Virus record (IMG/VR): IMGVR_UViG_2541047891_000003
From: a virus
Taxonomy: Duplodnaviria; Heunggongvirae; Uroviricota; Caudoviricetes
Strand: one strand, 5' to 3'
Length of the DNA: 40,697 nucleotides
Shown here: positions 1,963 through 17,365 of the stretch, in pieces
Numbering within the stretch: position 1 is the stretch's first letter
Layout: every line of letters starts with the position of its first letter
Program-made: the position numbers and the translations under genes
The notes under the pieces: generated by a model
The model's database searches: none
Told to the model about the DNA's origin: nothing
The model's input: the letters and a program-made list of their open reading frames with translations, nothing else

Positions 1963-4434
1963 TTAAAAATCAGCCTGATTCGGGATCAGTTTTTGCCAGA
2001 TAGCTGAAACGTATTTTGCCTGGTGACGAGCGTCATCAAGTGCATTATGGCGCTCACCTTCGAATGGAATAGCCGTTCTGGCATCGAAGTCTATGGCTTT
2101 CCCCAGCTCAACGATTGTGCGTACATCGCGATCGTTGTAGTAACGCCACGGGCAGGGGATCCCCTGCCGTTCGTATGAACGGCGCAAAATCGTGTTGTCG
2201 AAGTTTGCTCCATTTCCCCAGACCTGAACAAAAAATTCACCGGAGTTTTCGTCGATAAATTCCCGCAATTGTAACAGTGCATCATCTAACGGGATTTCAT
2301 CGGTCATAATGGCAGATTGCGCTTCGCGTGATTGCTTAAGCCACCATTTAATGGTGTCCCGATCAATGACTCCGCCAGCAGTTTCCAGATCGACAGTCTT
2401 ACTAAATTCCGGTCCCATATCTCCGGTTTGCGGATCGAAAAATATTGCACCTATTGAGATAATCGGGGCATCAGGATTTTTTCCCATGGTTTCAAGGTCG
2501 ATCATCAGATGAATCCCCGCTCTGCTGGTGGATGTGAGATTATGATGACCGTTCGCCTTAATTAAGGGATCTGACGCCTCGCCAGTTTCACTATCGCTGG
2601 CATGATGCTGATTGCCGCCAGTGTTCTCCTTGTGCTGATGCGCAGTGCCTTCCATTTCCTCCGGATCATTTTCCTGAACTTCAGGCTGATTCTCTTCATC
2701 GAATATTTCCTGGTATGTTGCGTCACCCATCACCGCACCACAATCAGGGCAGCTACCGCCGCCGATCTGACCGCAGGCGGTGCAGGCTTTTTCCGGCTCC
2801 TGTTGCGCTACTGGTTCAACCTGTTTCGTTTCTGGCTCGTTTTGTTGCGCATTTGGGCTGTTTTGTTCCGTTTTCTGGTCGTTCTGTTCCGATTCTTGCT
2901 GGTTCTGGTTTACAGAGTCGCGGGTTTCAATCCCCTTCACCCATTTCGGATCATTCGGGTCGCTAATCCCTGCAACAAATTCTCCGCGAGAGGCAGCAAG
3001 CAACTTATCGGCGTCAGGCTGGCTGATATTGGCTGCCTGCATAATTTTGTTTACTTCGTCAGCGGTAACTTTTACCGGCTCTGGTTGTGCGGTCGTGTCA
3101 GATGCACCAGTATTTTGTTGTGAACCTGAGTATGTACCGTTTTTGCGGGCAAAATATTCTTCTTTCGTGATTTCAGTAGCCCCTGCAGTCAGCGCCTTAT
3201 TCAGACCAGAAAGTTTGTTTGCGCGACCATATTTTTCGCCATCCTTATCTGTGAAGAGGAAGTAGAACGGCCCCTCACGCTCTACAGATGGTTCGACTTC
3301 CACTTTGCATTCGGTTTTTTCGTTGTCCGGAATTGCCGTTTCCACTGCATCAGTTTCTGGTACTGGCGACGAGAGAGTATCAGTTGCGCTCTGATTTGTT
3401 CCTTCATCTTCAAACACGCCCTTTGTAGTCAGGTATTCAGTAATGTATTTGTTCAGTGCCACAGGGTCTTTGTGAATGTCGATCGGACGTTCACGGACAA
3501 GGCCAAAAATAGTCTGGCGGTCGTAGCGAAGGGCATCAGGCTGTTTGCGCATTGATGCCGAGATACGCTTCCAGTCTTCGCGGTCGTTGTCGATAACTTC
3601 ATTTTTTGCCCAGCGATGGATGCTGCCGTCAATGTTTCCGGCATCCACATCACCAGGCCAGAGAGCGTAGGCCAGTTCGTCATCCAGTGTTTTCCATGTC
3701 TGCTTGTATTCGCGATGAATGGCAGCAATGACCGGGCTGATTTTTCCTGTTGAATTTTCAGTGTACTGTTGATTGGCTCTGGCGCGGGCGAGATCAACAA
3801 CAGACGTGTATTTTCCGGTTTCCTTGCGTTCACCTTCGCGACGTTTTTTCCAGATGCGCATCTCTGCCTGAATTTCGGGCCATTTAGCACCAGGAATACA
3901 TTTATGCTTAACCCACCCAATGGCATGCAGCTTAAGCTCCGGATACATGGCGTTAACTTCTGGCATTTTCATCAACGCTTCAACGATATGTCCGTCGAAT
4001 GTTGCCATGTCTTCCTGCAACAATTCCTGTGCGCTAATAACCATATCAACGGTGATGTTTTCACATGTGTCGAACTTAACCATGACAGCGTTCTGTACTT
4101 CAGGGGCCAGCTTGTCAAAAGTGACGTTCATCGGATCTGATTCAGTCTCAACCGGGACAAAGGAAGCAGAGTCCTCATCCCAGCGGTTTTCCTGCATATA
4201 TTCAGCATCCCAGGAATCGAGGGCAGGGCGGGGTATACCAGGTTTATCCTCGCAAACAAGAAATTTATAAGCGCAGTCCTGAGCAGCCGGATAATGTTCC
4301 AGGAATTGCCAGTGAAATTTTGCGCGGGCGCGACGTTCATCACCGGATTCAATGGCAGTGGCTACAGCGACTGCACCTTCTTCCTTTATTGCCTGTTCGT
4401 CCGGAATGGCGGCGCAAATAAAGACTTTACTCAT
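1963..4434 (-). CDS. Large putative exonuclease with a C-terminal DnaQ-like DEDDh 3'-5' exonuclease domain and a central Cys4 zinc ribbon (often annotated exodeoxyribonuclease VIII-like)
   Basis: 823-aa ORF; motifs LMIDLETMG and HNALDDARHQAKY near the C-terminus; CTACGQIGGGSCPDCG zinc ribbon; acidic Q/E-rich low-complexity linker. Confidence 0.6.
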   Translation of the reverse strand: MSKVFICAAIPDEQAIKEEGAVAVATAIESGDERRARAKFHWQFLEHYPAAQDCAYKFLVCEDKPGIPRPALDSWDAEYMQENRWDEDSASFVPVETESDPMNVTFDKLAPEVQNAVMVKFDTCENITVDMVISAQELLQEDMATFDGHIVEALMKMPEVNAMYPELKLHAIGWVKHKCIPGAKWPEIQAEMRIWKKRREGERKETGKYTSVVDLARARANQQYTENSTGKISPVIAAIHREYKQTWKTLDDELAYALWPGDVDAGNIDGSIHRWAKNEVIDNDREDWKRISASMRKQPDALRYDRQTIFGLVRERPIDIHKDPVALNKYITEYLTTKGVFEDEGTNQSATDTLSSPVPETDAVETAIPDNEKTECKVEVEPSVEREGPFYFLFTDKDGEKYGRANKLSGLNKALTAGATEITKEEYFARKNGTYSGSQQNTGASDTTAQPEPVKVTADEVNKIMQAANISQPDADKLLAASRGEFVAGISDPNDPKWVKGIETRDSVNQNQQESEQNDQKTEQNSPNAQQNEPETKQVEPVAQQEPEKACTACGQIGGGSCPDCGAVMGDATYQEIFDEENQPEVQENDPEEMEGTAHQHKENTGGNQHHASDSETGEASDPLIKANGHHNLTSTSRAGIHLMIDLETMGKNPDAPIISIGAIFFDPQTGDMGPEFSKTVDLETAGGVIDRDTIKWWLKQSREAQSAIMTDEIPLDDALLQLREFIDENSGEFFVQVWGNGANFDNTILRRSYERQGIPCPWRYYNDRDVRTIVELGKAIDFDARTAIPFEGERHNALDDARHQAKYVSAIWQKLIPNQADF

Positions 4435-4513
4435 TTTGTTTTACCTCATTACAGATTTAAGGGTGAACAAATCCCTGCCATTGCTGGCATATAAAAATGA
4501 AACCGGATATTAA

Positions 4514-4717
4514 TTACGGTGCTGTTTTAAGTCCTGCCGGGATTTCGTTATTATCCTGGTGAATAACTTTATCGACCGGGTAACAGTTACCGGGAATTTT
4601 CTGTTCGGTTGCTGCAGTCACACACTCCTGCATTGTCCTGTGAACACTGACTGCAATATCAACTGGCTCTCCGGAAACAAGAAAAACTGTCAGAACAAGT
4701 GCAAATGCTGTATTCAT
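4514..4717 (-). CDS. ydfD: YdfD-like small protein with an N-terminal signal/TM segment (Qin prophage lysis-protein family)
   Basis: 67-aa product MNTAFALVLTVFLVSGEPVDIAVSVHRTMQEC... from the internal ATG at 4717; lies immediately downstream of dicB as in Qin; overlaps the dicB stop. Confidence 0.65.
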   Translation of the reverse strand: MNTAFALVLTVFLVSGEPVDIAVSVHRTMQECVTAATEQKIPGNCYPVDKVIHQDNNEIPAGLKTAP

Positions 4718-4902
4718 TGCCAACATCCTTTTTGTATCGGACGTAAACGGGCCAGCATTGAAAGAATGCATATTTTATTTAATAACTCCCGTTCGTGTTT
4801 TCTCTTGTTAATGGCATCTTCAGTAAATACAGGGTTACTGATAGTGACACCAATTTCAAAACAACCTTCAGACGTATTAACGTTTGGTAATAACGTTTCC
4901 AT
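4714..4902 (-). CDS. dicB: Cell division inhibitor DicB
   Basis: 62-aa product METLLPNVNTSEGCFEIGVTISNPVFTEDAINKRKHERELLNKICILSMLARLRPIQKGCWQ, near-identical to E. coli DicB as I recall it; ATG verified at 4900-4902; the longer 97-aa track ORF is an upstream extension. Confidence 0.85.
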   Translation of the reverse strand: METLLPNVNTSEGCFEIGVTISNPVFTEDAINKRKHERELLNKICILSMLARLRPIQKGCWQ

Positions 4903-5071
4903 TATCGCGTCCTCAACAATGAATTTTGTGATGCGGTGCCTGGTGCCTCCAGGTGACGTTAACCAGTTAACAATTAACGCCGGATACAGAGAATCCACCC
5001 ATAACACTGTTTTTGGTTTTAACTGTTCCGCGTGCGCTCAGCCGCATTCACCACATCACAAAATTCACTTT

Positions 5072-5129
5072 AAAAAGGGCGGCAGAGCAGTCACGGAGTA
5101 AAACTGATACCGCCAAACGTCACCAGAAA
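5072..5129 (-). ncRNA. dicF: DicF small regulatory RNA (ftsZ-targeting sRNA)
   Basis: Minus-strand sequence TTTCTGGTGACGTTTGGCGGTATCAGTTTTACTCCGTGACTGCTCTGCCGCCCTTTTT matches the DicF sequence I recall; ends in a GC stem plus T-run; about 170 nt upstream of dicB as in Qin. Confidence 0.85.
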
Positions 5130-5463
5130 ATTGATAACAGAGGGCGTTGCAGCGGAGTTGTCACTTAAGCGTATGGTCAACCTGACAACCCGGTGTCCTC
5201 AACGGGGAAGGAATAACCCCGCCATACTTACCGCCGCGCCATTTCGCGGAGTGCCACAACCGGAAGCGCACGGTCGACGAAAATTTAACGACAGGCTATC
5301 TATGAACCAGCTACCTCGCCGTGCGCTTTCGCGTTATGGTCTGACTTTTCAGGGAAATATCCTTTCAGTAAACTGTCAGTGCCGGATGCTCACCCGTGTC
5401 CGGCGCACGCACTCCACCTCACCCGTGGAGAACTCCTTAATCACCAACCCTCAGGAGGGTGAA

Positions 5464-5739
5464 ATGTCGACTGAAAATGATGAAATCATTAACTCCCTGA
5501 TACGCCAGATTAATAATTTTGATAAAGCATTGCAGCATGCTGCGGCGCGTAGTGATATAACTCTTTTAGCAATTTCATTTCTTGCATCTGTTATGGATAA
5601 AAATGAAGTCGTACGACAGAGTCTTGTTGATTATATCGACTCGCTTCAACCCGGCACTTTCAATCATGAGAGCTTCAATCATGAGAAAGAGCATGTTAAG
5701 TCTGTAATTAATTCTCTTATTTTGAATCAAAAGAATTAA
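5464..5739 (+). CDS. Hypothetical 91-aa protein encoded antisense to the dicB operon
   Basis: ATG at 5464 preceded by a strong RBS (AGGAGGGTGAA); product MSTENDEIINSLIRQINNFDKALQ...; no family recognised; the N-terminal extension of the track ORF starting at 5131 is probably not coding. Confidence 0.5.
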   Translation: MSTENDEIINSLIRQINNFDKALQHAAARSDITLLAISFLASVMDKNEVVRQSLVDYIDSLQPGTFNHESFNHEKEHVKSVINSLILNQKN

Positions 5740-6037
5740 TGCTTTTTGTTGCAAAGTAATTTTCAAGGGGTTCTATTCGAATCCCTTTCTTTTTCATTAA
5801 CAAGCCAAACCCCTTATCAATGATGTCCATTAGATCCAGGAAGTGTTTTTCATGTAAATCCTGGTTATCAGAGAGCTGCTTCTCTTCGTACAGACCGATA
5901 AAGGCACGACGCACGTTACCGGATATAGTATCGATGGTTTCTTTTTCTACGGTACTCAGGTCAAGAGTCGCCAGTTGGGAACGAACTATATTCGCTGCCA
6001 TTTCCTGGAATTGCATTGGTAAATCTTTAAATTCCAT
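5717..6037 (-). CDS. Hypothetical 106-aa protein within the ydfABC-dicF-dicB operon
   Basis: ATG at 6037 with GAGG about 8 nt upstream, 22 nt after the ydfC stop (coupled arrangement); no family recognised. Confidence 0.55.
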   Translation of the reverse strand: MEFKDLPMQFQEMAANIVRSQLATLDLSTVEKETIDTISGNVRRAFIGLYEEKQLSDNQDLHEKHFLDLMDIIDKGFGLLMKKKGIRIEPLENYFATKSINSFDSK

Positions 6038-6059
6038 TATTAGCCTCGTTGGTTAGCTA

Positions 6060-6278
6060 TTAACGTGGGTATGTAATCATTCTGGCAATGCTTAATGCCG
6101 CTGCTTTTTGCAGCCTGGTGATATCCTGCTCCAGAGCGGACAGATTTTCAGTCTGCTTAGCCCTGGCTTCATTGGCCCATTTCAGATCCTGCGCTGCATT
6201 AATTTTCTGGCGCATCCACTCATAAAGTTCATCATCGGTATAGTCTGGCGCGATGATGACGGGTTCTCGTTTCTGCAT
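6060..6278 (-). CDS. ydfC: YdfC-like small protein
   Basis: 72-aa ORF in the position and size of Qin ydfC, directly downstream of ydfB. Confidence 0.6.
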   Translation of the reverse strand: MQKREPVIIAPDYTDDELYEWMRQKINAAQDLKWANEARAKQTENLSALEQDITRLQKAAALSIARMITYPR

Positions 6279-6307
6279 ACTGATTCCTCGCGGTGCTGTT
6301 TCGCTTA

Positions 6308-6436
6308 TCAGCCGTTAGATTTTGCCGAACTGGAAAGCGCCTGTTTAAACTCACTGAAGCTGAGAGCTTCTTCGCCTTCGGCAAGGCCTTCGAAGTATTC
6401 TTCGTAAGCCTTTTCCATGATTGCGTCGAAATCCAT
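6308..6436 (-). CDS. ydfB: YdfB-like small protein (42 aa)
   Basis: Hand-translated MDFDAIMEKAYEEYFEGLAEGEEALSFSEFKQALSSSAKSNG; not in the ORF track because it is under 60 aa; start 1 nt after the ydfA stop. Confidence 0.6.
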   Translation of the reverse strand: MDFDAIMEKAYEEYFEGLAEGEEALSFSEFKQALSSSAKSNG

Positions 6437-6437
6437 A

Positions 6438-6593
6438 TCACTCACCTGAATTTCTTTCCAGCCAGCGACGCGCGCCAGATTCGGTTTTAAACGTTTTGCT
6501 TTTGGTATACGTCATCGCGGTGAACGTACCGTCCTGGTTTGGGAACACGCCGTATACCAGAGATTCGTTGTTGCCAAGATCGATAGTATCCAT
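6438..6593 (-). CDS. ydfA: YdfA-like small protein (51 aa)
   Basis: Hand-translated MDTIDLGNNESLVYGVFPNQDGTFTAMTYTKSKTFKTESGARRWLERNSGE; length and sequence consistent with Qin YdfA from memory; not in the ORF track. Confidence 0.65.
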   Translation of the reverse strand: MDTIDLGNNESLVYGVFPNQDGTFTAMTYTKSKTFKTESGARRWLERNSGE

Positions 6594-6761
6594 GTTGACC
6601 TCATTTCCCCTTAACGCCGGGGTAGCGGAACTAAGACCTGTCGCACCGTTGTGCTTTGATGGAATACATTGTTCTCTCTAGGTGAACAAAAGTCAACATA
6701 ATGAATACATAAAAGGTAAAAAAAACCGCCTTGCGGCGGTATGATTCTGTAAAATAAAGAA

Positions 6762-7151
6762 TTATTTTTGTCGTGTTATTGGGTCGACGTATTCTGAGTA
6801 AAATTCGGTCAGTTTTTGAAGTCGCATTTGAAAAGCTGCCAGCATATTTCTACGTTCTACGGGTGGCAGGTTTCTGTAAACATCAAGCAGGGCCTTCTCG
6901 TCATCATCAAGCGCTTCTCTATTTGTCTCTTCTTTCCCTGTCAGTAGCCAAGAAAGGGAAACGTTTGTGGCTTCTGCAATTTTGGCTGCGGAATCTTTAC
7001 TGATTGTTCCTCTTTTTTTCCATGCGTTGACTGATGAACGACCTACACCAGCGATACGCGCTAAATCTGAACCACTTAAATGATGCTGTTGAGAGATCGC
7101 ATCTAACCTTTCTGCTAGCGGGGTGTCGTATTGCTTTTTTCTCATGTCCAT
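6762..7151 (-). CDS. Prophage repressor, HTH (XRE/CI-like) DNA-binding protein, functional analogue of DicA/CI
   Basis: 129-aa ORF with an HTH-like segment LSGSDLARIAGVGRSSVNAWKKRG; divergent from a Cro-like gene across an operator-rich intergenic region. Confidence 0.75.
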   Translation of the reverse strand: MDMRKKQYDTPLAERLDAISQQHHLSGSDLARIAGVGRSSVNAWKKRGTISKDSAAKIAEATNVSLSWLLTGKEETNREALDDDEKALLDVYRNLPPVERRNMLAAFQMRLQKLTEFYSEYVDPITRQK

Positions 7152-7166
7152 TTAGCAATTATAACC

Positions 7167-7250
7167 GTTCAGTGAACACTAACAATTCCTCGAGGTGTTG
7201 ACTTATGTTCGTTTTAAGTGAACAATTGTTGTGGTTAGTTGAACTGGAGG
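7167..7250. promoter_or_regulatory. Immunity-region operator/promoter cluster (palindrome GTTCAGTGAAC, repeated GTGAAC/GTTGAAC half-sites, -35-like TTGACT)
   Basis: Palindrome at 7167-7177; related half-sites at 7216-7244; TTGACT at 7198-7203; lies between the divergent repressor and cro-like genes. Confidence 0.5.
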
Positions 7251-11468: not shown

Positions 11469-11679
11469 TTTTATACCTTTTGTGTTGTGTGAAGGAGCAG
11501 TATAGTCAGAAATGAGACAAGTGAAAGGGGATAGAAAGTAATAGTTTGTTTTTGTAGAATTGCTGCGGGTGCTTGAGGCTATCTGCCTCGGGCATGAACA
11601 CCAACGGCAGATAGAGAAAAGCCCCAGTTAACATTACGCGTCCGGCAAGACGCTTAACATTAATCTGAGGCATATCTGT

Positions 11680-11880
11680 ATGCGACACATAAAGATTAGC
11701 CTCTTAACAGTAAGAAATCAACTAACAGGGGGCTGTAATGCGAAGGAGCTATGTGTTTTGTCTGGTGGTGGTTTGCATCACCATTCTGATATTTGTCGGG
11801 ATGGTTCGCGGTTCGCTATGCGAGCTGCACATCAGGCAGGGAAACACAGAGCTTTCAGCGTATTTAGCCTACGAAGTTGA
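11680..11880 (+). CDS. mok: mok-like overlapping reading frame of a hok-family locus
   Basis: 66-codon ORF starting upstream of, and overlapping in another frame, the hok-like toxin ORF, as in hok/mok/sok loci. Confidence 0.4.
   Translation: MRHIKISLLTVRNQLTGGCNAKELCVLSGGGLHHHSDICRDGSRFAMRAAHQAGKHRAFSVFSLRS
11693..11721 (-). promoter_or_regulatory. sok: Candidate promoter for a Sok-like antisense RNA (minus strand: -35 TTGATT, 17-bp spacer, -10 TAATCT)
   Basis: Promoter-like hexamers on the minus strand positioned so the transcript would be complementary to the mok start region. Confidence 0.35.
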
Positions 11881-11890
11881 AAAACGTTAA
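11738..11890 (+). CDS. hok: Hok/Gef-family type I toxin (50 aa)
   Basis: Hand-translated MRRSYVFCLVVVCITILIFVGMVRGSLCELHIRQGNTELSAYLAYEVEKR; matches the Hok/Gef pattern (TM helix, SLCE motif, conserved C-terminal AYxAYE); GGGGG RBS upstream; not in the ORF track. Confidence 0.85.
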   Translation: MRRSYVFCLVVVCITILIFVGMVRGSLCELHIRQGNTELSAYLAYEVEKR

Positions 11891-13777: not shown

Positions 13778-14152
13778 ATGCGTATAGAGTTTGTTTTGCC
13801 TTATCCGCCGACGGTGAATACTTACTGGCGACGTCGTGGCAACACATATTTTGTATCAAAAGCCGGTGAGCGTTATCGTCGTGATGTGGCGCTCATTGTT
13901 CGCCAGCAGCGACTGAAATTAAACCTGTCCGGAAGGCTGGCGATAAAGATTATTGCAGAGCCACCGGATAAGCGCCGTCGTGACCTGGACAATATTCTGA
14001 AAGCACCACTGGATGCGCTGACGCATGCGGGACTGCTTATCGATGACGAGCAGTTTGATGAAATCAATATTGTGCGAGGTCAGGTCGTTCCTGGTGGTCG
14101 GCTGGGCGTGAAGATTTACGAAATAATGCATGACGGGCAGGTCCAAAAATGA
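13778..14152 (+). CDS. rusA: RusA-family Holliday junction resolvase
   Basis: 124-aa ORF with the RRRDLDNxxKAxxDALT motif typical of RusA. Confidence 0.85.
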   Translation: MRIEFVLPYPPTVNTYWRRRGNTYFVSKAGERYRRDVALIVRQQRLKLNLSGRLAIKIIAEPPDKRRRDLDNILKAPLDALTHAGLLIDDEQFDEINIVRGQVVPGGRLGVKIYEIMHDGQVQK

Positions 14153-14970
14153 AACTGGAAGATTTACCGAAATACTATTCCCCGAAATCGCCAGGCCTGA
14201 CTGATGCATCCGCCTCGACATCAAAAGATGCACTGAGTATCACTGATGTGATGGCTGCACAGGGCATGACACAGAACCGGGCTGAGATGGGATTTTCTGC
14301 GTTCCTGGGGAAAATGGGCATTAGTATGAACGACAGGGCGCGGGCAACAGAATTACTGGCAGATTATGCATTAAGTCAGTGCGATCGCGTGGCGGCGTTA
14401 AGAAAACTTCCGGCAGAAATAAAACCGGCAGTGATGCGCATTATGGCTTCGTATGCTTTTGAGGATTATGCCCGCAGTGCAGCGAGTAAAAAGCAGTGCC
14501 CTTGTTGCGGTGGGAAAAAATTTATTGAAAGCGTAGTTTTTACAAACAAGGTCCGGTATCCGGATGGTAAACCGCCGGTATGGGCAAAGTGTACAAAGGG
14601 TGTGTATCCGTCTTACTGGGAAGAATGGAAAAAAATCCGGGAGGTGGTGAAAGTTTCTTGTCCTGAATGTAAAGGGAAGGGGGAGATTTCCACTGCCTGT
14701 AAAGACTGCCGTGGGCGTGGTGTTGCCATTCATCGTGAAGAGTCGGAAAAACGGGGTATGCCTGTAATCAGGAACTGCCAGCGTTGTGGCGGTCGGGGCT
14801 ATGAAAGACTACCATCAACGGAGGCATTTAATGCCATACGCAAAGTGACGAGTGCTATCACGCTTGATACGTGGAAAAAATCAGTGAAACGCTTTTACGA
14901 TACGTTGGTGGTTCGGTTTGACATTGAAGAGGCATGGGCGGAGCGGCAGTTAAAGAGGGTAACGCGATAG
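14149..14970 (+). CDS. quuQ: Late-gene antiterminator Q (phage 82/Qin QuuQ-like, zinc-finger type)
   Basis: 273-aa ORF with multiple CxxC pairs; typical position upstream of the lysis genes. Confidence 0.75.
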   Translation: MKLEDLPKYYSPKSPGLTDASASTSKDALSITDVMAAQGMTQNRAEMGFSAFLGKMGISMNDRARATELLADYALSQCDRVAALRKLPAEIKPAVMRIMASYAFEDYARSAASKKQCPCCGGKKFIESVVFTNKVRYPDGKPPVWAKCTKGVYPSYWEEWKKIREVVKVSCPECKGKGEISTACKDCRGRGVAIHREESEKRGMPVIRNCQRCGGRGYERLPSTEAFNAIRKVTSAITLDTWKKSVKRFYDTLVVRFDIEEAWAERQLKRVTR

Positions 14971-16051: not shown

Positions 16052-16127
16052 GGCCCTTTAGCTCAGTGGTGAGAGCGAGCGACTCATAATCGCCAGGTCG
16101 CTGGTTCAAATCCAGCAAGGGCCACCA
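16052..16127 (+). tRNA. ileZ: tRNA-Ile2 (anticodon CAU, lysidine type; could alternatively be tRNA-Met)
   Basis: Cloverleaf with acceptor GGCCCTT/AAGGGCC, anticodon loop CTCATAA, T-loop TTCAAAT, CCA end; close to E. coli ileX as I recall it. Confidence 0.8.
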
Positions 16128-16128
16128 A

Positions 16129-16205
16129 CCGCCACTAGCTCATCAGGAAAGAGCGTCAACCCTTTAAGTTGAGAGTGCGAGGTTCGAGTCCCCGGTGGCG
16201 GTCCA
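16129..16205 (+). tRNA. tRNA with atypical anticodon loop CCTTTAA (anticodon UUU = Lys if canonical; C at position 33)
   Basis: Acceptor CCGCCAC/GTGGCGG, D-arm GCTC..GAGC, anticodon stem TCAAC/GTTGA, T-loop TTCGAGT, CCA end; identity uncertain. Confidence 0.6.
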
Positions 16206-16207
16206 GT

Positions 16208-16283
<76 letters not shown>

Positions 16284-16286
16284 TAT

Positions 16287-16361
<75 letters not shown>

Positions 16362-16652: not shown

Positions 16653-16868
16653 ATGAAATCCATGGACAAAATTTCAACGGGCATTGCCTACGGCACCTCC
16701 GCAGGCAGTGCTGGCTACTGGTTTTTACAGTGGCTTGATCAGGTCAGTCCGTCACAGTGGGCTGCGATTGGTGTACTGGGGAGTCTGGTTCTGGGCTTGC
16801 TGACGTATCTGACAAACCTTTATTTCAAGATTAAAGAAGATAAGCGTAAGGCTGCGAGAGGTGAATAA
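16653..16868 (+). CDS. S: Class II holin / pinholin (phage 21 S21-like, dual-start MKSM)
   Basis: 71-aa ORF, two TM segments, near-identical to S21 as I recall it; RBS GGAGGTGA upstream. Confidence 0.9.
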
Positions 16869-17365
16869 TGCCGCCATCATTACGCAAGGCTGTTGCTGCT
16901 GCTATTGGTGGTGGGGCTGTTGCCATAGCGTCTGTGCTCATCACTGGTCCGAGTGGTGACGATGGCCTGGAAGGTGTCAGCTACATACCATACAAAGATA
17001 TCGTTGGCGTATGGACTGTATGTCACGGACACACCGGAAAAGACATCATGCTCGGTAAAACGTATACCGAAGCAGAATGCAAAGCCCTCCTGAATAAAGA
17101 CCTTGCCACGGTCGCCAGACAAATTAACCCGTACATAAAAGTCGATATACCGGAAACAACGCGCGGCGCTCTTTACTCGTTCGTTTACAACGTGGGCGCT
17201 GGCAATTTCAGAACATCGACGCTTCTTCGCAAAATCAACCAGGGTGATATCAAAGGTGCGTGTGATCAGCTACGTCGCTGGACATACGCTGGTGGTAAGC
17301 AATGGAAAGGTCTCATGACTCGCCGTGAGATTGAGCGTGAAGTCTGTTTGTGGGGGCAACAATGA
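16868..17365 (+). CDS. R: SAR endolysin (lysozyme with N-terminal signal-anchor-release domain, R21-like)
   Basis: 165-aa ORF with a Gly/Ala-rich SAR N-terminus and a lysozyme domain; overlaps the holin stop. Confidence 0.9.

Follow-up and report, generated by a model that had tools for sequence, protein, structure and literature searches.

A minus-strand gene cluster in the window, the 40,697-nucleotide stretch of viral DNA analysed here, is very probably the pL-type (early-left) operon of a lambdoid Escherichia coli prophage that looks complete; the cluster carries the dicBF division-inhibition module known from the Qin prophage of E. coli K-12 (Table 1). By sequence comparison, the operon is an intact copy of the well-studied prophage dicBF operon, a correct finding but an ordinary one that is already known. 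An earlier, sequence-only reading of this DNA had named a set of elements; each of them was located on the minus strand, no more than a few bases from where that reading had put it.

Table 1. Features of the dicBF region and its surroundings, listed from the repressor gene leftwards (window coordinates).
Feature	Position	Strand	Evidence or remark
CI-type HTH repressor gene, 129 aa	6762-7151	minus	Pfam Phage_CI_repr (48 bits), HTH_3
Terminator-like hairpin and T-run closing the repressor gene	6725-6740	minus	ACCGCCGCAAGGCGGT then TTTTTTT
pL-type promoter-like site, TTGACT-17-AACAAT	6668-6696	minus	promoter scan
Putative palindromic operator, TTGTTC-N9-GAACAA	6669-6689		overlaps the pL-type promoter-like site; function predicted
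Operon (ydfA, ydfB, ydfC, dicF, dicB, ydfD)	4514-6593	minus	order as in K-12 Qin
ydfA, 51 aa	6438-6593	minus	Pfam DUF1391 (99.4 bits); 50/51 identical to K-12 YdfA
ydfB, 42 aa, from ATG at 6436	6308-6436	minus	41/42 identical to K-12 YdfB; phrog_2061
ydfC, 72 aa	6060-6278	minus	69/72 identical to K-12 YdfC; phrog_1744
Cassette, 590 bp, two ORFs	5450-6039		20 nt past the ydfC stop, before the DicF leader; absent from K-12 Qin
Forward cassette ORF, 106 aa	5717-6037	minus	phrog_6937
Terminator-like hairpin and T-run	5765-5787	plus only	downstream of the 91-aa ORF
Convergent (antisense-oriented) cassette ORF, 91 aa	5464-5739	plus	AGGAGG at 5453-5458
DicF precursor leader	5130-5449	minus	within blastn block 5449-4300, 95.3% identical to K-12
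dicF sRNA, 53 nt	5077-5129	minus	RF00039, K-12 identity, hairpin
Structured dicF-dicB spacer, STnc100-like	4870-5079	minus	RF02076 sub-threshold match, fold, conserved stem
dicB, 62 aa	4714-4902	minus	PF05358 and NF049927
ydfD-like gene, 67 aa	4514-4717	minus	Pfam DUF1482 (87.7 bits)
Exonuclease gene, 823 aa	1963-4434	minus	Rv2179c-like domain (227 bits)

The body of the operon follows its K-12 counterpart closely. In blastn comparison with K-12 Qin DNA, positions 6632-6040 align at 96.3% and positions 5449-4300 at 95.3%, and the YdfA, YdfB, YdfC and YdfD proteins are 94-98% identical to those of K-12, a range that becomes 89-98% with DicB included. Every ORF of the operon is intact, from the six K-12 members to the exonuclease gene behind them, and no IS elements or frameshifts were seen inside it. 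Residues 1-62 of DicB match both Pfam PF05358 (127.4 bits, cut-off 27) and NCBIfam NF049927 (132.7 bits, cut-off 100), and 55 of the 62 residues are identical to K-12 DicB, with the seven differing residues lying mostly near the C-terminus. The start of the ydfD-like gene overlaps the dicB stop (ATGA), and its product is identical to K-12 YdfD at 59 of 63 residues and has four additional C-terminal residues. The DicB, DUF1391 and DUF1482 matches all exceed curated cut-offs and, as alignment and profile scores, the operon matches are far above chance. The DicB homologue, the YdfD-like small protein behind it, and the short ydfA and ydfB homologues proposed in the sequence-only reading are all borne out by these comparisons.

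The same is true of the dicF sRNA and its terminator, which had been placed on the minus strand at about 5072-5129. Rfam model RF00039 matches 5128-5077 over its full length (1-52) with 76.7 bits (gathering score 48, E 2.3e-15), and 5129-5077 is identical to the annotated K-12 dicF at 53 of 53 nucleotides. The checks that the sequence-only reading had put forward, on the Rfam model, K-12 dicF and the DicB, YdfA and YdfB peptides, thus all came out in its favour. The 3′-end is predicted to form a hairpin (GGCGGUAUCAG...CUGCUCUGCCGCC) followed by CUUUUU, with the terminator U-run at 5076-5072. The distance from dicF to dicB, estimated earlier at about 170 nt, measures 174 nt and equals that of K-12. 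Targeting of ftsZ and MinC by this module would follow from the identity or similarity of its products to the K-12 molecules; for DicF, the proposed pairing with ftsZ would follow from identity to the K-12 RNA that was tested in PMC5069750. A predicted duplex between DicF and positions -29 to +26 of ftsZ (K-12 leader) has an energy of -38.5 kcal/mol, but 67 of 500 shuffled DicF sequences gave equal or better values, so the duplex energy is no independent support for the pairing.

Conserved long predicted stems flank dicF at the places where K-12 RNase III products end (PMC5069750, PMC10448788), and leader and spacer together are about 95% identical to K-12. In the leader, a 13-bp stem is predicted between 5328-5316 and 5274-5262. 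The 5′-end of the 190-nt DicF precursor of K-12 is made by RNase III (PMC10448788), and by arithmetic this end would map to about position 5266, inside the predicted leader stem. The spacer aligns with the full-length Rfam model RF02076 (STnc100) at 38.7 bits (E 2.6e-6), below the gathering score of 47, and by that comparison is related to STnc100 while being no formal member of the family. Its predicted fold (z-score -4.69) is closed by a 22-bp stem, approximately 5069-5049 with 4939-4919, that recurs, with two compensatory pairs, in 10 sequences taken from both dicB and kilR contexts. A core motif, TCACCNGGAGGCACCNGGCACC, is common to the spacer and to the STnc100/PasD prophage sRNAs, STnc100 being related to PasD (bioRxiv 10.64898/2026.05.13.724894); STnc100 is a separate gene, whereas the spacer is an internal part of the operon. 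A role of the spacer as a leader dedicated to division-inhibitor genes was rejected, since among IMG/VR contigs with the motif 96 of 125 complete copies are found in other contexts. The recognition of the spacer as a relative of the STnc100/PasD prophage RNAs that also precedes kilR-type inhibitors is a by-product of more value.

With respect to control, the designation of the operon as Qin-type holds for its body but not for its promoter, operator and repressor, which belong to another immunity type. The repressor has 28 identities with K-12 DicA over 140 aligned columns and falls below the NCBIfam DicA cut-off (37 bits versus 101). Judged from these scores and its location, it is a positional analogue of DicA with a different immunity type, and not DicA itself; no peptidase domain was found in it. 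Copies of the palindromic putative operator with no or one mismatch occur in the whole window only at 6669-6689 and 7205-7225, the latter inside a divergent pR-like promoter (7198-7226). A tblastn search gave no homologue of the Rem antirepressor, the window has no LexA box, and K-12-type control by DicA/DicC and Rem does not apply to the operon. The layout is analogous to that of K-12, with a repressor, a terminator, and a promoter with operator; since homology to K-12 dicBp/DicA is lacking in promoter, operator and repressor alike, regulation of the operon is predicted from layout only.

Position 4514, where the sequence-only reading had ended the operon, marks the end of ydfD, but the operon most likely runs further left into the exonuclease gene, which would then be its distal part. 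K-12 homology continues through the start of ydfE, the gene is annotated as 'exonuclease' in related prophages and, by alignment, the K-12 pseudogene ydfE is what is left of a gene of this kind. The lambdoid prophage that hosts the operon appears to be complete; its genes for integrase, replication, Q, endolysin, terminase, portal, capsid, tape-measure and J are full length.

The order from ydfA to ydfD had been called complete, and on one strand it is, but the gap between ydfC and dicF holds the 590-bp cassette that is without a K-12 counterpart. Alignment to K-12 breaks cleanly at the cassette (window position 6040 corresponds to 2262 of the K-12 locus and 5449 to 2263), and no direct repeats were seen at the junctions. 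The cassette variant occurs at coverage of at least 80% in 198 complete E. coli genomes. Its forward ORF has 235 homologues, none of them named and almost all of Escherichia origin; their C-termini vary, while the N-terminal ~55 aa are common to phrog_1363, phrog_2151 and phrog_9419. The convergent ORF has 15 homologues, and every one with a named source is from E. coli; an identical ORF is annotated by PGAP elsewhere (L003), and the frame is open in IMG/VR contig L090 at 84% nucleotide identity. Comparison with a 79%-identical relative shows an unbroken frame and, among the changed codons, 12 synonymous and 19 non-synonymous ones, a pattern that suggests coding only weakly. Neither cassette ORF matches anything in Pfam or NCBIfam, and the 91-aa ORF is also without a PHROG or credible PADLOC match. 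PADLOC matches for the two cassette ORFs, for YdfC and for the exonuclease (BrxA with E 0.014, and one generic DEDDh match) were not credible as defence hits. AlphaFold2 models of the two ORFs are helical bundles with pLDDT of about 70 (69.8 for the 106-aa ORF), and Foldseek found no PDB match for these models at E ≤ 0.001.

A conserved 20-nt Shine-Dalgarno junction, CCAACCCTCAGGAGGGTGAA, with ATG next to it on the 3′ side, precedes on the opposite strand four unrelated ORF families (73-92 aa) that occur in different prophages, the 91-aa type being the one in the window. Each of these ORFs is convergent with a forward ORF that has a conserved N-terminus and a varying C-terminus. The pattern looks like a gene-swapping slot, and the observation may be new. 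A tentative reading, held with low confidence, is that the ydfC-dicF junction of Qin/Rac-type prophages is such a slot and that its antisense-oriented genes are lysogen-expressed accessories or an antisense brake. If so, these genes could serve the lysogen, for example in superinfection exclusion or defence, their products could be partners of the variable forward protein, or their transcripts could brake the toxic dicF/dicB precursor. A polymorphic slot beside the DicF leader, filled by unrelated small genes with one ribosome-binding junction, is likewise a by-product of more value.

Taken as an early-left operon, the region would be expected to work as follows. In the lysogen, the short CI-type repressor would bind the palindrome and shut the pL-type promoter, and would act likewise at the divergent pR-like promoter. 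By analogy with K-12, derepression would give one long RNA comprising ydfA, ydfB, ydfC, the 106-aa ORF, the 320-nt leader, dicF, the 174-nt spacer, dicB and ydfD, and probably extending into the exonuclease gene. RNase III would cut the long stems on both sides of dicF and RNase E would make the mature DicF 5′-end, steps that were shown in K-12 and are predicted here from 95% sequence identity. Transcription that stops at the DicF hairpin and U-run would yield the 53-nt sRNA, and read-through would yield a dicB-ydfD mRNA, as shown in K-12. Regulation and processing of the K-12 operon are described in PMC10448788.

The effects of these products are known from work on the K-12 molecules, to which the sRNA of this prophage is identical and its DicB and YdfD proteins are 89-94% identical. 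With Hfq, K-12 DicF pairs with the ribosome-binding region of ftsZ and blocks FtsZ synthesis, and it also represses xylR and pykA (PMC5069750). K-12 DicB binds MinC, brings it to the septum and breaks Z rings, and via MinC also blocks the ManYZ inner-membrane channel used by phage lambda (PMC4967827, PMC6832061). K-12 YdfD lyses cells through inhibition of IspG (PMC8835842). The net effect in this prophage would be filamentation of the induced or infected cell.

It is conceivable, though rather unlikely, that the module is kept mainly for the benefit of the lysogen, and not for division arrest in lytic growth. DicB made at low or stress-induced levels would then exclude lambda-like phages that need ManYZ, and DicF would tune metabolism or virulence. 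DicB does shield K-12 from lambda through MinC and ManYZ (PMC6832061), stationary-phase DicF and spontaneous or stress-induced promoter switching are reported (PMC10448788), and the dicF-dicB unit is found in 3927 of 5426 complete E. coli genomes, about seven in ten, with a median of two places in each. The early-left position, the seemingly complete prophage and the CI-type operator predict instead that expression occurs mainly upon induction; the lysogen-benefit and lytic roles are not mutually exclusive.

The cassette bears on a different possibility. A convergent gene between promoter and dicF could lower read-through, and the operon might even be split, with convergent transcription of the 91-aa ORF or RNA pairing keeping pL-type transcripts from dicF and dicB and leaving the toxic genes uncoupled or silenced. 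The strong Shine-Dalgarno sequence of the convergent ORF and its own plus-strand terminator-like site in the insert would suit such an arrangement, yet the insert was found to have no minus-strand terminator-like site, and a promoter search upstream of the convergent gene returned a single weak candidate (8 of 12 matches). Moreover, dicF, the spacer, dicB and ydfD are intact and 95% identical to K-12, and the cassette recurs with intact downstream genes in the 198 genomes and in several IMG/VR contigs, so that a split operon is improbable. Decay of the whole region into a non-functional relic, like much of K-12 Qin, is more improbable still, to the point of being hardly credible. The dicBF module was indeed first described in a cryptic prophage (PMC5069750), but here the six K-12 members and the exonuclease gene are intact, and the structural and lysis genes that were tested are full length. 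The reading of the region as an early-left operon with the dicBF module is preferred.

The K-12 Qin operon (ydfABC-dicF-dicB-ydfDE) is the closest point of reference, alike in gene order, in dicF and in dicF-dicB spacing. It differs in having DicA-type control with Rem, and in its ydfE, a truncated pseudogene whose 3′-end carries an IS2E annotation; the Qin prophage is cryptic, whereas the prophage around the present operon looks complete. Isolated temperate coliphages (Tritos, whose record annotates DicF, mEp460_ev081, Evi, HannyBb and the vB_Eco-R series) and PPompW prophages also carry dicBF, and in the dicBF coliphages the operon is part of the early-left arm of lambdoid genomes of full size, adjoining the same exonuclease gene. 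Of the 60 matching phage records, none reaches a coverage above 72% over 4514-6632, and hence none carries the 590-bp cassette. Phage mEp460_ev081 is functional, with dicB, dicF, dicAC and rem (PMC10448788). A Rac-type kil module has the same architecture of forward ORF, convergent small ORF, DicF-like RNA (41 bits, below the Rfam threshold), STnc100-like spacer (43.8 bits) and small division inhibitor, although its KilR is unrelated in sequence to DicB; contig L090 joins a true dicF to a KilR homologue. In phage lambda, kil likewise encodes a small host-division inhibitor expressed from the pL early-left operon under CI control, but the lambda protein is a different one, which targets FtsZ/ZipA independently of MinC and has no sRNA partner. 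The operon itself adds nothing new to this picture: the host-takeover module of this prophage is the standard DicF/DicB/YdfD one, here in what appears to be a complete phage with a non-DicA repressor, which fits later reports of functional dicBF phages and contrasts with the 2016 view of a dicBF module surviving only in defective prophages.

The Rfam DicF model (RF00039) matches at full length on the minus strand (5128-5077) in a scan of the whole window, with a score of 76.7 bits (gathering score 48). Between 5129 and 5077, all 53 nt agree with annotated K-12 dicF, and the 3′ end forms a hairpin followed by CUUUUU (5076-5072). After a spacer of 174 nt, equal to that of K-12, comes dicB, whose product shares 55 of 62 residues with K-12 DicB and scores as DicB with the curated models of Pfam (127.4 bits) and NCBIfam (132.7 bits, cut-off 100). 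The dicB stop is overlapped (ATGA) by the start of a YdfD homologue that retains 59 of the 63 K-12 residues and has four extra ones, and close homologues of YdfA, YdfB and YdfC lie upstream. The sequence-only reading had proposed a minus-strand DicF with its terminator, a DicB homologue about 170 nt beyond it, a small YdfD-like protein after that and YdfA and YdfB homologues upstream, and every item of this observation was confirmed. Its interpretation as a Qin-type division-inhibition operon is supported by these comparisons, with corrections that concern an inserted cassette, a different repressor and promoter, and a leftward extension.

Features of the operon and its surroundings (window coordinates)
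Feature	Position	Strand	Remarks
exonuclease gene	1963-4434	-	823 aa, intact; C-terminal Rv2179c-like domain
ydfD-like	4514-4717	-	67 aa; DUF1482/YdfD homologue
dicB	4714-4902	-	62 aa; Pfam and NCBIfam DicB
dicF	5129-5077	-	Rfam RF00039 and identity to K-12
convergent cassette ORF	5464-5739	+	91 aa
forward cassette ORF	5717-6037	-	106 aa; phrog_6937
terminator-like hairpin of cassette	5765-5787	+	predicted
ydfC	6060-6278	-	69/72 identical to K-12 YdfC
ydfB	6308-6436	-	41/42 identical to K-12 YdfB
ydfA	6438-6593	-	50/51 identical to K-12 YdfA
promoter-like site	6696-6668	-	TTGACT-17-AACAAT; promoter-like by sequence
terminator-like hairpin after repressor gene	6740-6725	-	predicted, strong

Alignment with the K-12 Qin region (blastn) gave two blocks, window 6632-6040 with K-12 locus 1670-2262 (96.3% identity) and window 5449-4300 with 2263-3413 (95.3%). 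These blocks abut in K-12, and the 590 bp at 5450-6039 are therefore an insert relative to K-12, placed at one point 20 nt past the ydfC stop, with clean junctions that lack flanking repeats. The N-terminal ~55 residues of the 106-aa cassette ORF are common to other PHROGs, and the 91-aa ORF has AGGAGG five bases 5′ of its ATG. No minus-strand terminator-like site was found within the insert. Homologues of both proteins are all unnamed and nearly all from Escherichia; their predicted structures are helical bundles of medium confidence, and neither model matched a fold in the PDB.

What lies between ydfC and the DicF leader varies among prophages: in K-12 the interval is empty, the window has the 106-aa forward and convergent 91-aa ORFs, and other prophages have other ORF pairs (loci compared with the window include L001, 3064-3682; L006, 780-1280; L027; L062; and L107). 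Among 22 sequences with dicF or dicB, including 19 IMG/VR loci, the interval is K-12-like in 10 and contains the window's or another cassette in the rest. An exact 20-nt junction bearing a Shine-Dalgarno sequence, CCAACCCTCAGGAGGGTGAA, stands directly before an ATG and reads antisense to the operon; the ORFs that follow it in 118 complete IMG/VR junctions fall into four unrelated families of 77, 92, 91 and 73 aa (43, 38, 23 and 14 members, respectively). Three of the alternative antisense ORFs in this interval belong to PHROG families of their own, none with a known function. This shared junction before unrelated ORFs may point to a conserved expression socket beside the DicF leader, in which small genes are exchanged. 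In an IMG/VR locus (L090, about 4017-5616), a hybrid module combines ydfC, the window's two-ORF cassette and an identical dicF with a KilR homologue (82%) that takes the place of DicB; sRNA and protein inhibitor thus recombine independently of each other. Opposite the DicF leader (5131-5463, +), about 100 codons are open in all loci, K-12 included; this frame runs into the 91-aa ORF in the window, some database entries call proteins of 119-145 aa from it, and the G+C-rich conserved leader probably produces it as an artefact.

Compared with shuffled controls, the 174-nt dicF-dicB spacer, which lies within a structured RNA at 4870-5079 (-), has a much more stable fold (z-score -4.69), with a predicted closing stem of 21-22 bp (about 5069-5049 with 4939-4919) over several hairpins. 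The long stem is conserved, with two compensatory pairs, in ten aligned sequences that come from dicB and kilR contexts. In a passage citing Faubladier 1990, PMC5069750 describes a 72-nt K-12 DicF form with an RNase III-made 3′ end, which here would map to ~5058, within the closing stem. The K-12 190-nt precursor has an RNase III-made 5′ end, and that of mature DicF is made by RNase E (PMC10448788); the former would map to ~5266, where the 3′ arm of a 13-bp stem is predicted in the conserved leader. The spacer matches the full STnc100 model of Rfam below threshold (38.7 versus 47 bits; E 2.6e-6). STnc100-like elements also precede kilR in Rac-SA53 (with a sub-threshold DicF-like sequence upstream), kil in Shigella phage 75/02 Stx and, in P7, terB with a TciB-like gene. 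A role as dedicated leader of division inhibitors was rejected because the IMG/VR copies of the core motif occur mostly in other contexts: for 96 of 125 complete copies, no DicB or Kil homologue follows and no DicF precedes. By eye, ORFs downstream of other copies include esterase-like and holin-like ones, and some copies lie directly behind promoter-like sequences. The STnc100-like element is thus a general RNA element of prophages.

The window is a lambdoid prophage whose close relatives are E. coli prophages and isolated temperate coliphages. Its integrase, replication initiator, Q-like antiterminator, endolysin, large terminase, portal, major head, tape-measure and J proteins are all full length. 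It also has a hok/sok-type toxin-antitoxin locus (11567-11884, +; Rfam sok, 98.2 bits at 11567-11740; Hok-like ORF 11741-11884, 35% identical to K-12 HokD) and four tandem tRNA genes (Met-CAT, Lys-TTT, Thr-TGT and Gly-TCC; 16052-16361, +) between the Q-like antiterminator (14149-14970) and endolysin (16868-17365) genes.

To the left, homology with K-12 runs on and takes in the start of ydfE, a pseudogene that is a truncated N-terminal remnant of the exonuclease gene found intact here, and the early-left operon therefore probably extends into that gene. The exonuclease matches NCBIfam exodeoxyribonuclease VIII partially (266 bits, cut-off 1269); its Rv2179c-like domain is of the 3′-5′ exoribonuclease type.

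Upstream, homology begins just 39 nt 5′ of ydfA, and the promoter region and repressor differ from those of Qin. The 129-aa HTH protein encoded at 6762-7151 (-) has 28 identities with K-12 DicA over 140 aligned columns, and its assignment as DicA was rejected (NCBIfam DicA, 37 bits, cut-off 101); like DicA, it is short and has only an HTH domain. The layout of repressor gene, terminator-like hairpin and promoter-like site with a palindrome is the same as in Qin. The palindrome (TTGTTC-N9-GAACAA) overlaps the promoter-like site, and copies with no or one mismatch occur in the 40.7-kb window only at 6669-6689 and, inside the divergent pR-like promoter, at 7205-7225. Neither a Rem homologue nor a LexA box (CTGT-N8-ACAG) was found in the window.

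Since DicF is identical and the proteins are close homologues, K-12 functions would be expected to carry over to this operon by homology. DicF represses ftsZ, xylR and pykA through base pairing (PMC5069750), DicB affects both division and ManYZ by way of MinC (PMC4967827, PMC6832061), and YdfD is a lysis protein and IspG inhibitor (PMC8835842). A DicF-ftsZ duplex calculation did not set real DicF apart from shuffles, so it lends the pairing no further support. Of 5426 complete E. coli genomes, 3927 contain the dicF-spacer-dicB unit at ≥80% coverage; the median is two places per genome with any match. The window's cassette variant occurs in 198 complete genomes and in none of the phage records, about twenty of which carry the operon; one, Tritos, annotates DicF. 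Given this distribution and the functional dicBF phage noted in PMC10448788, the dicBF operon is already known.
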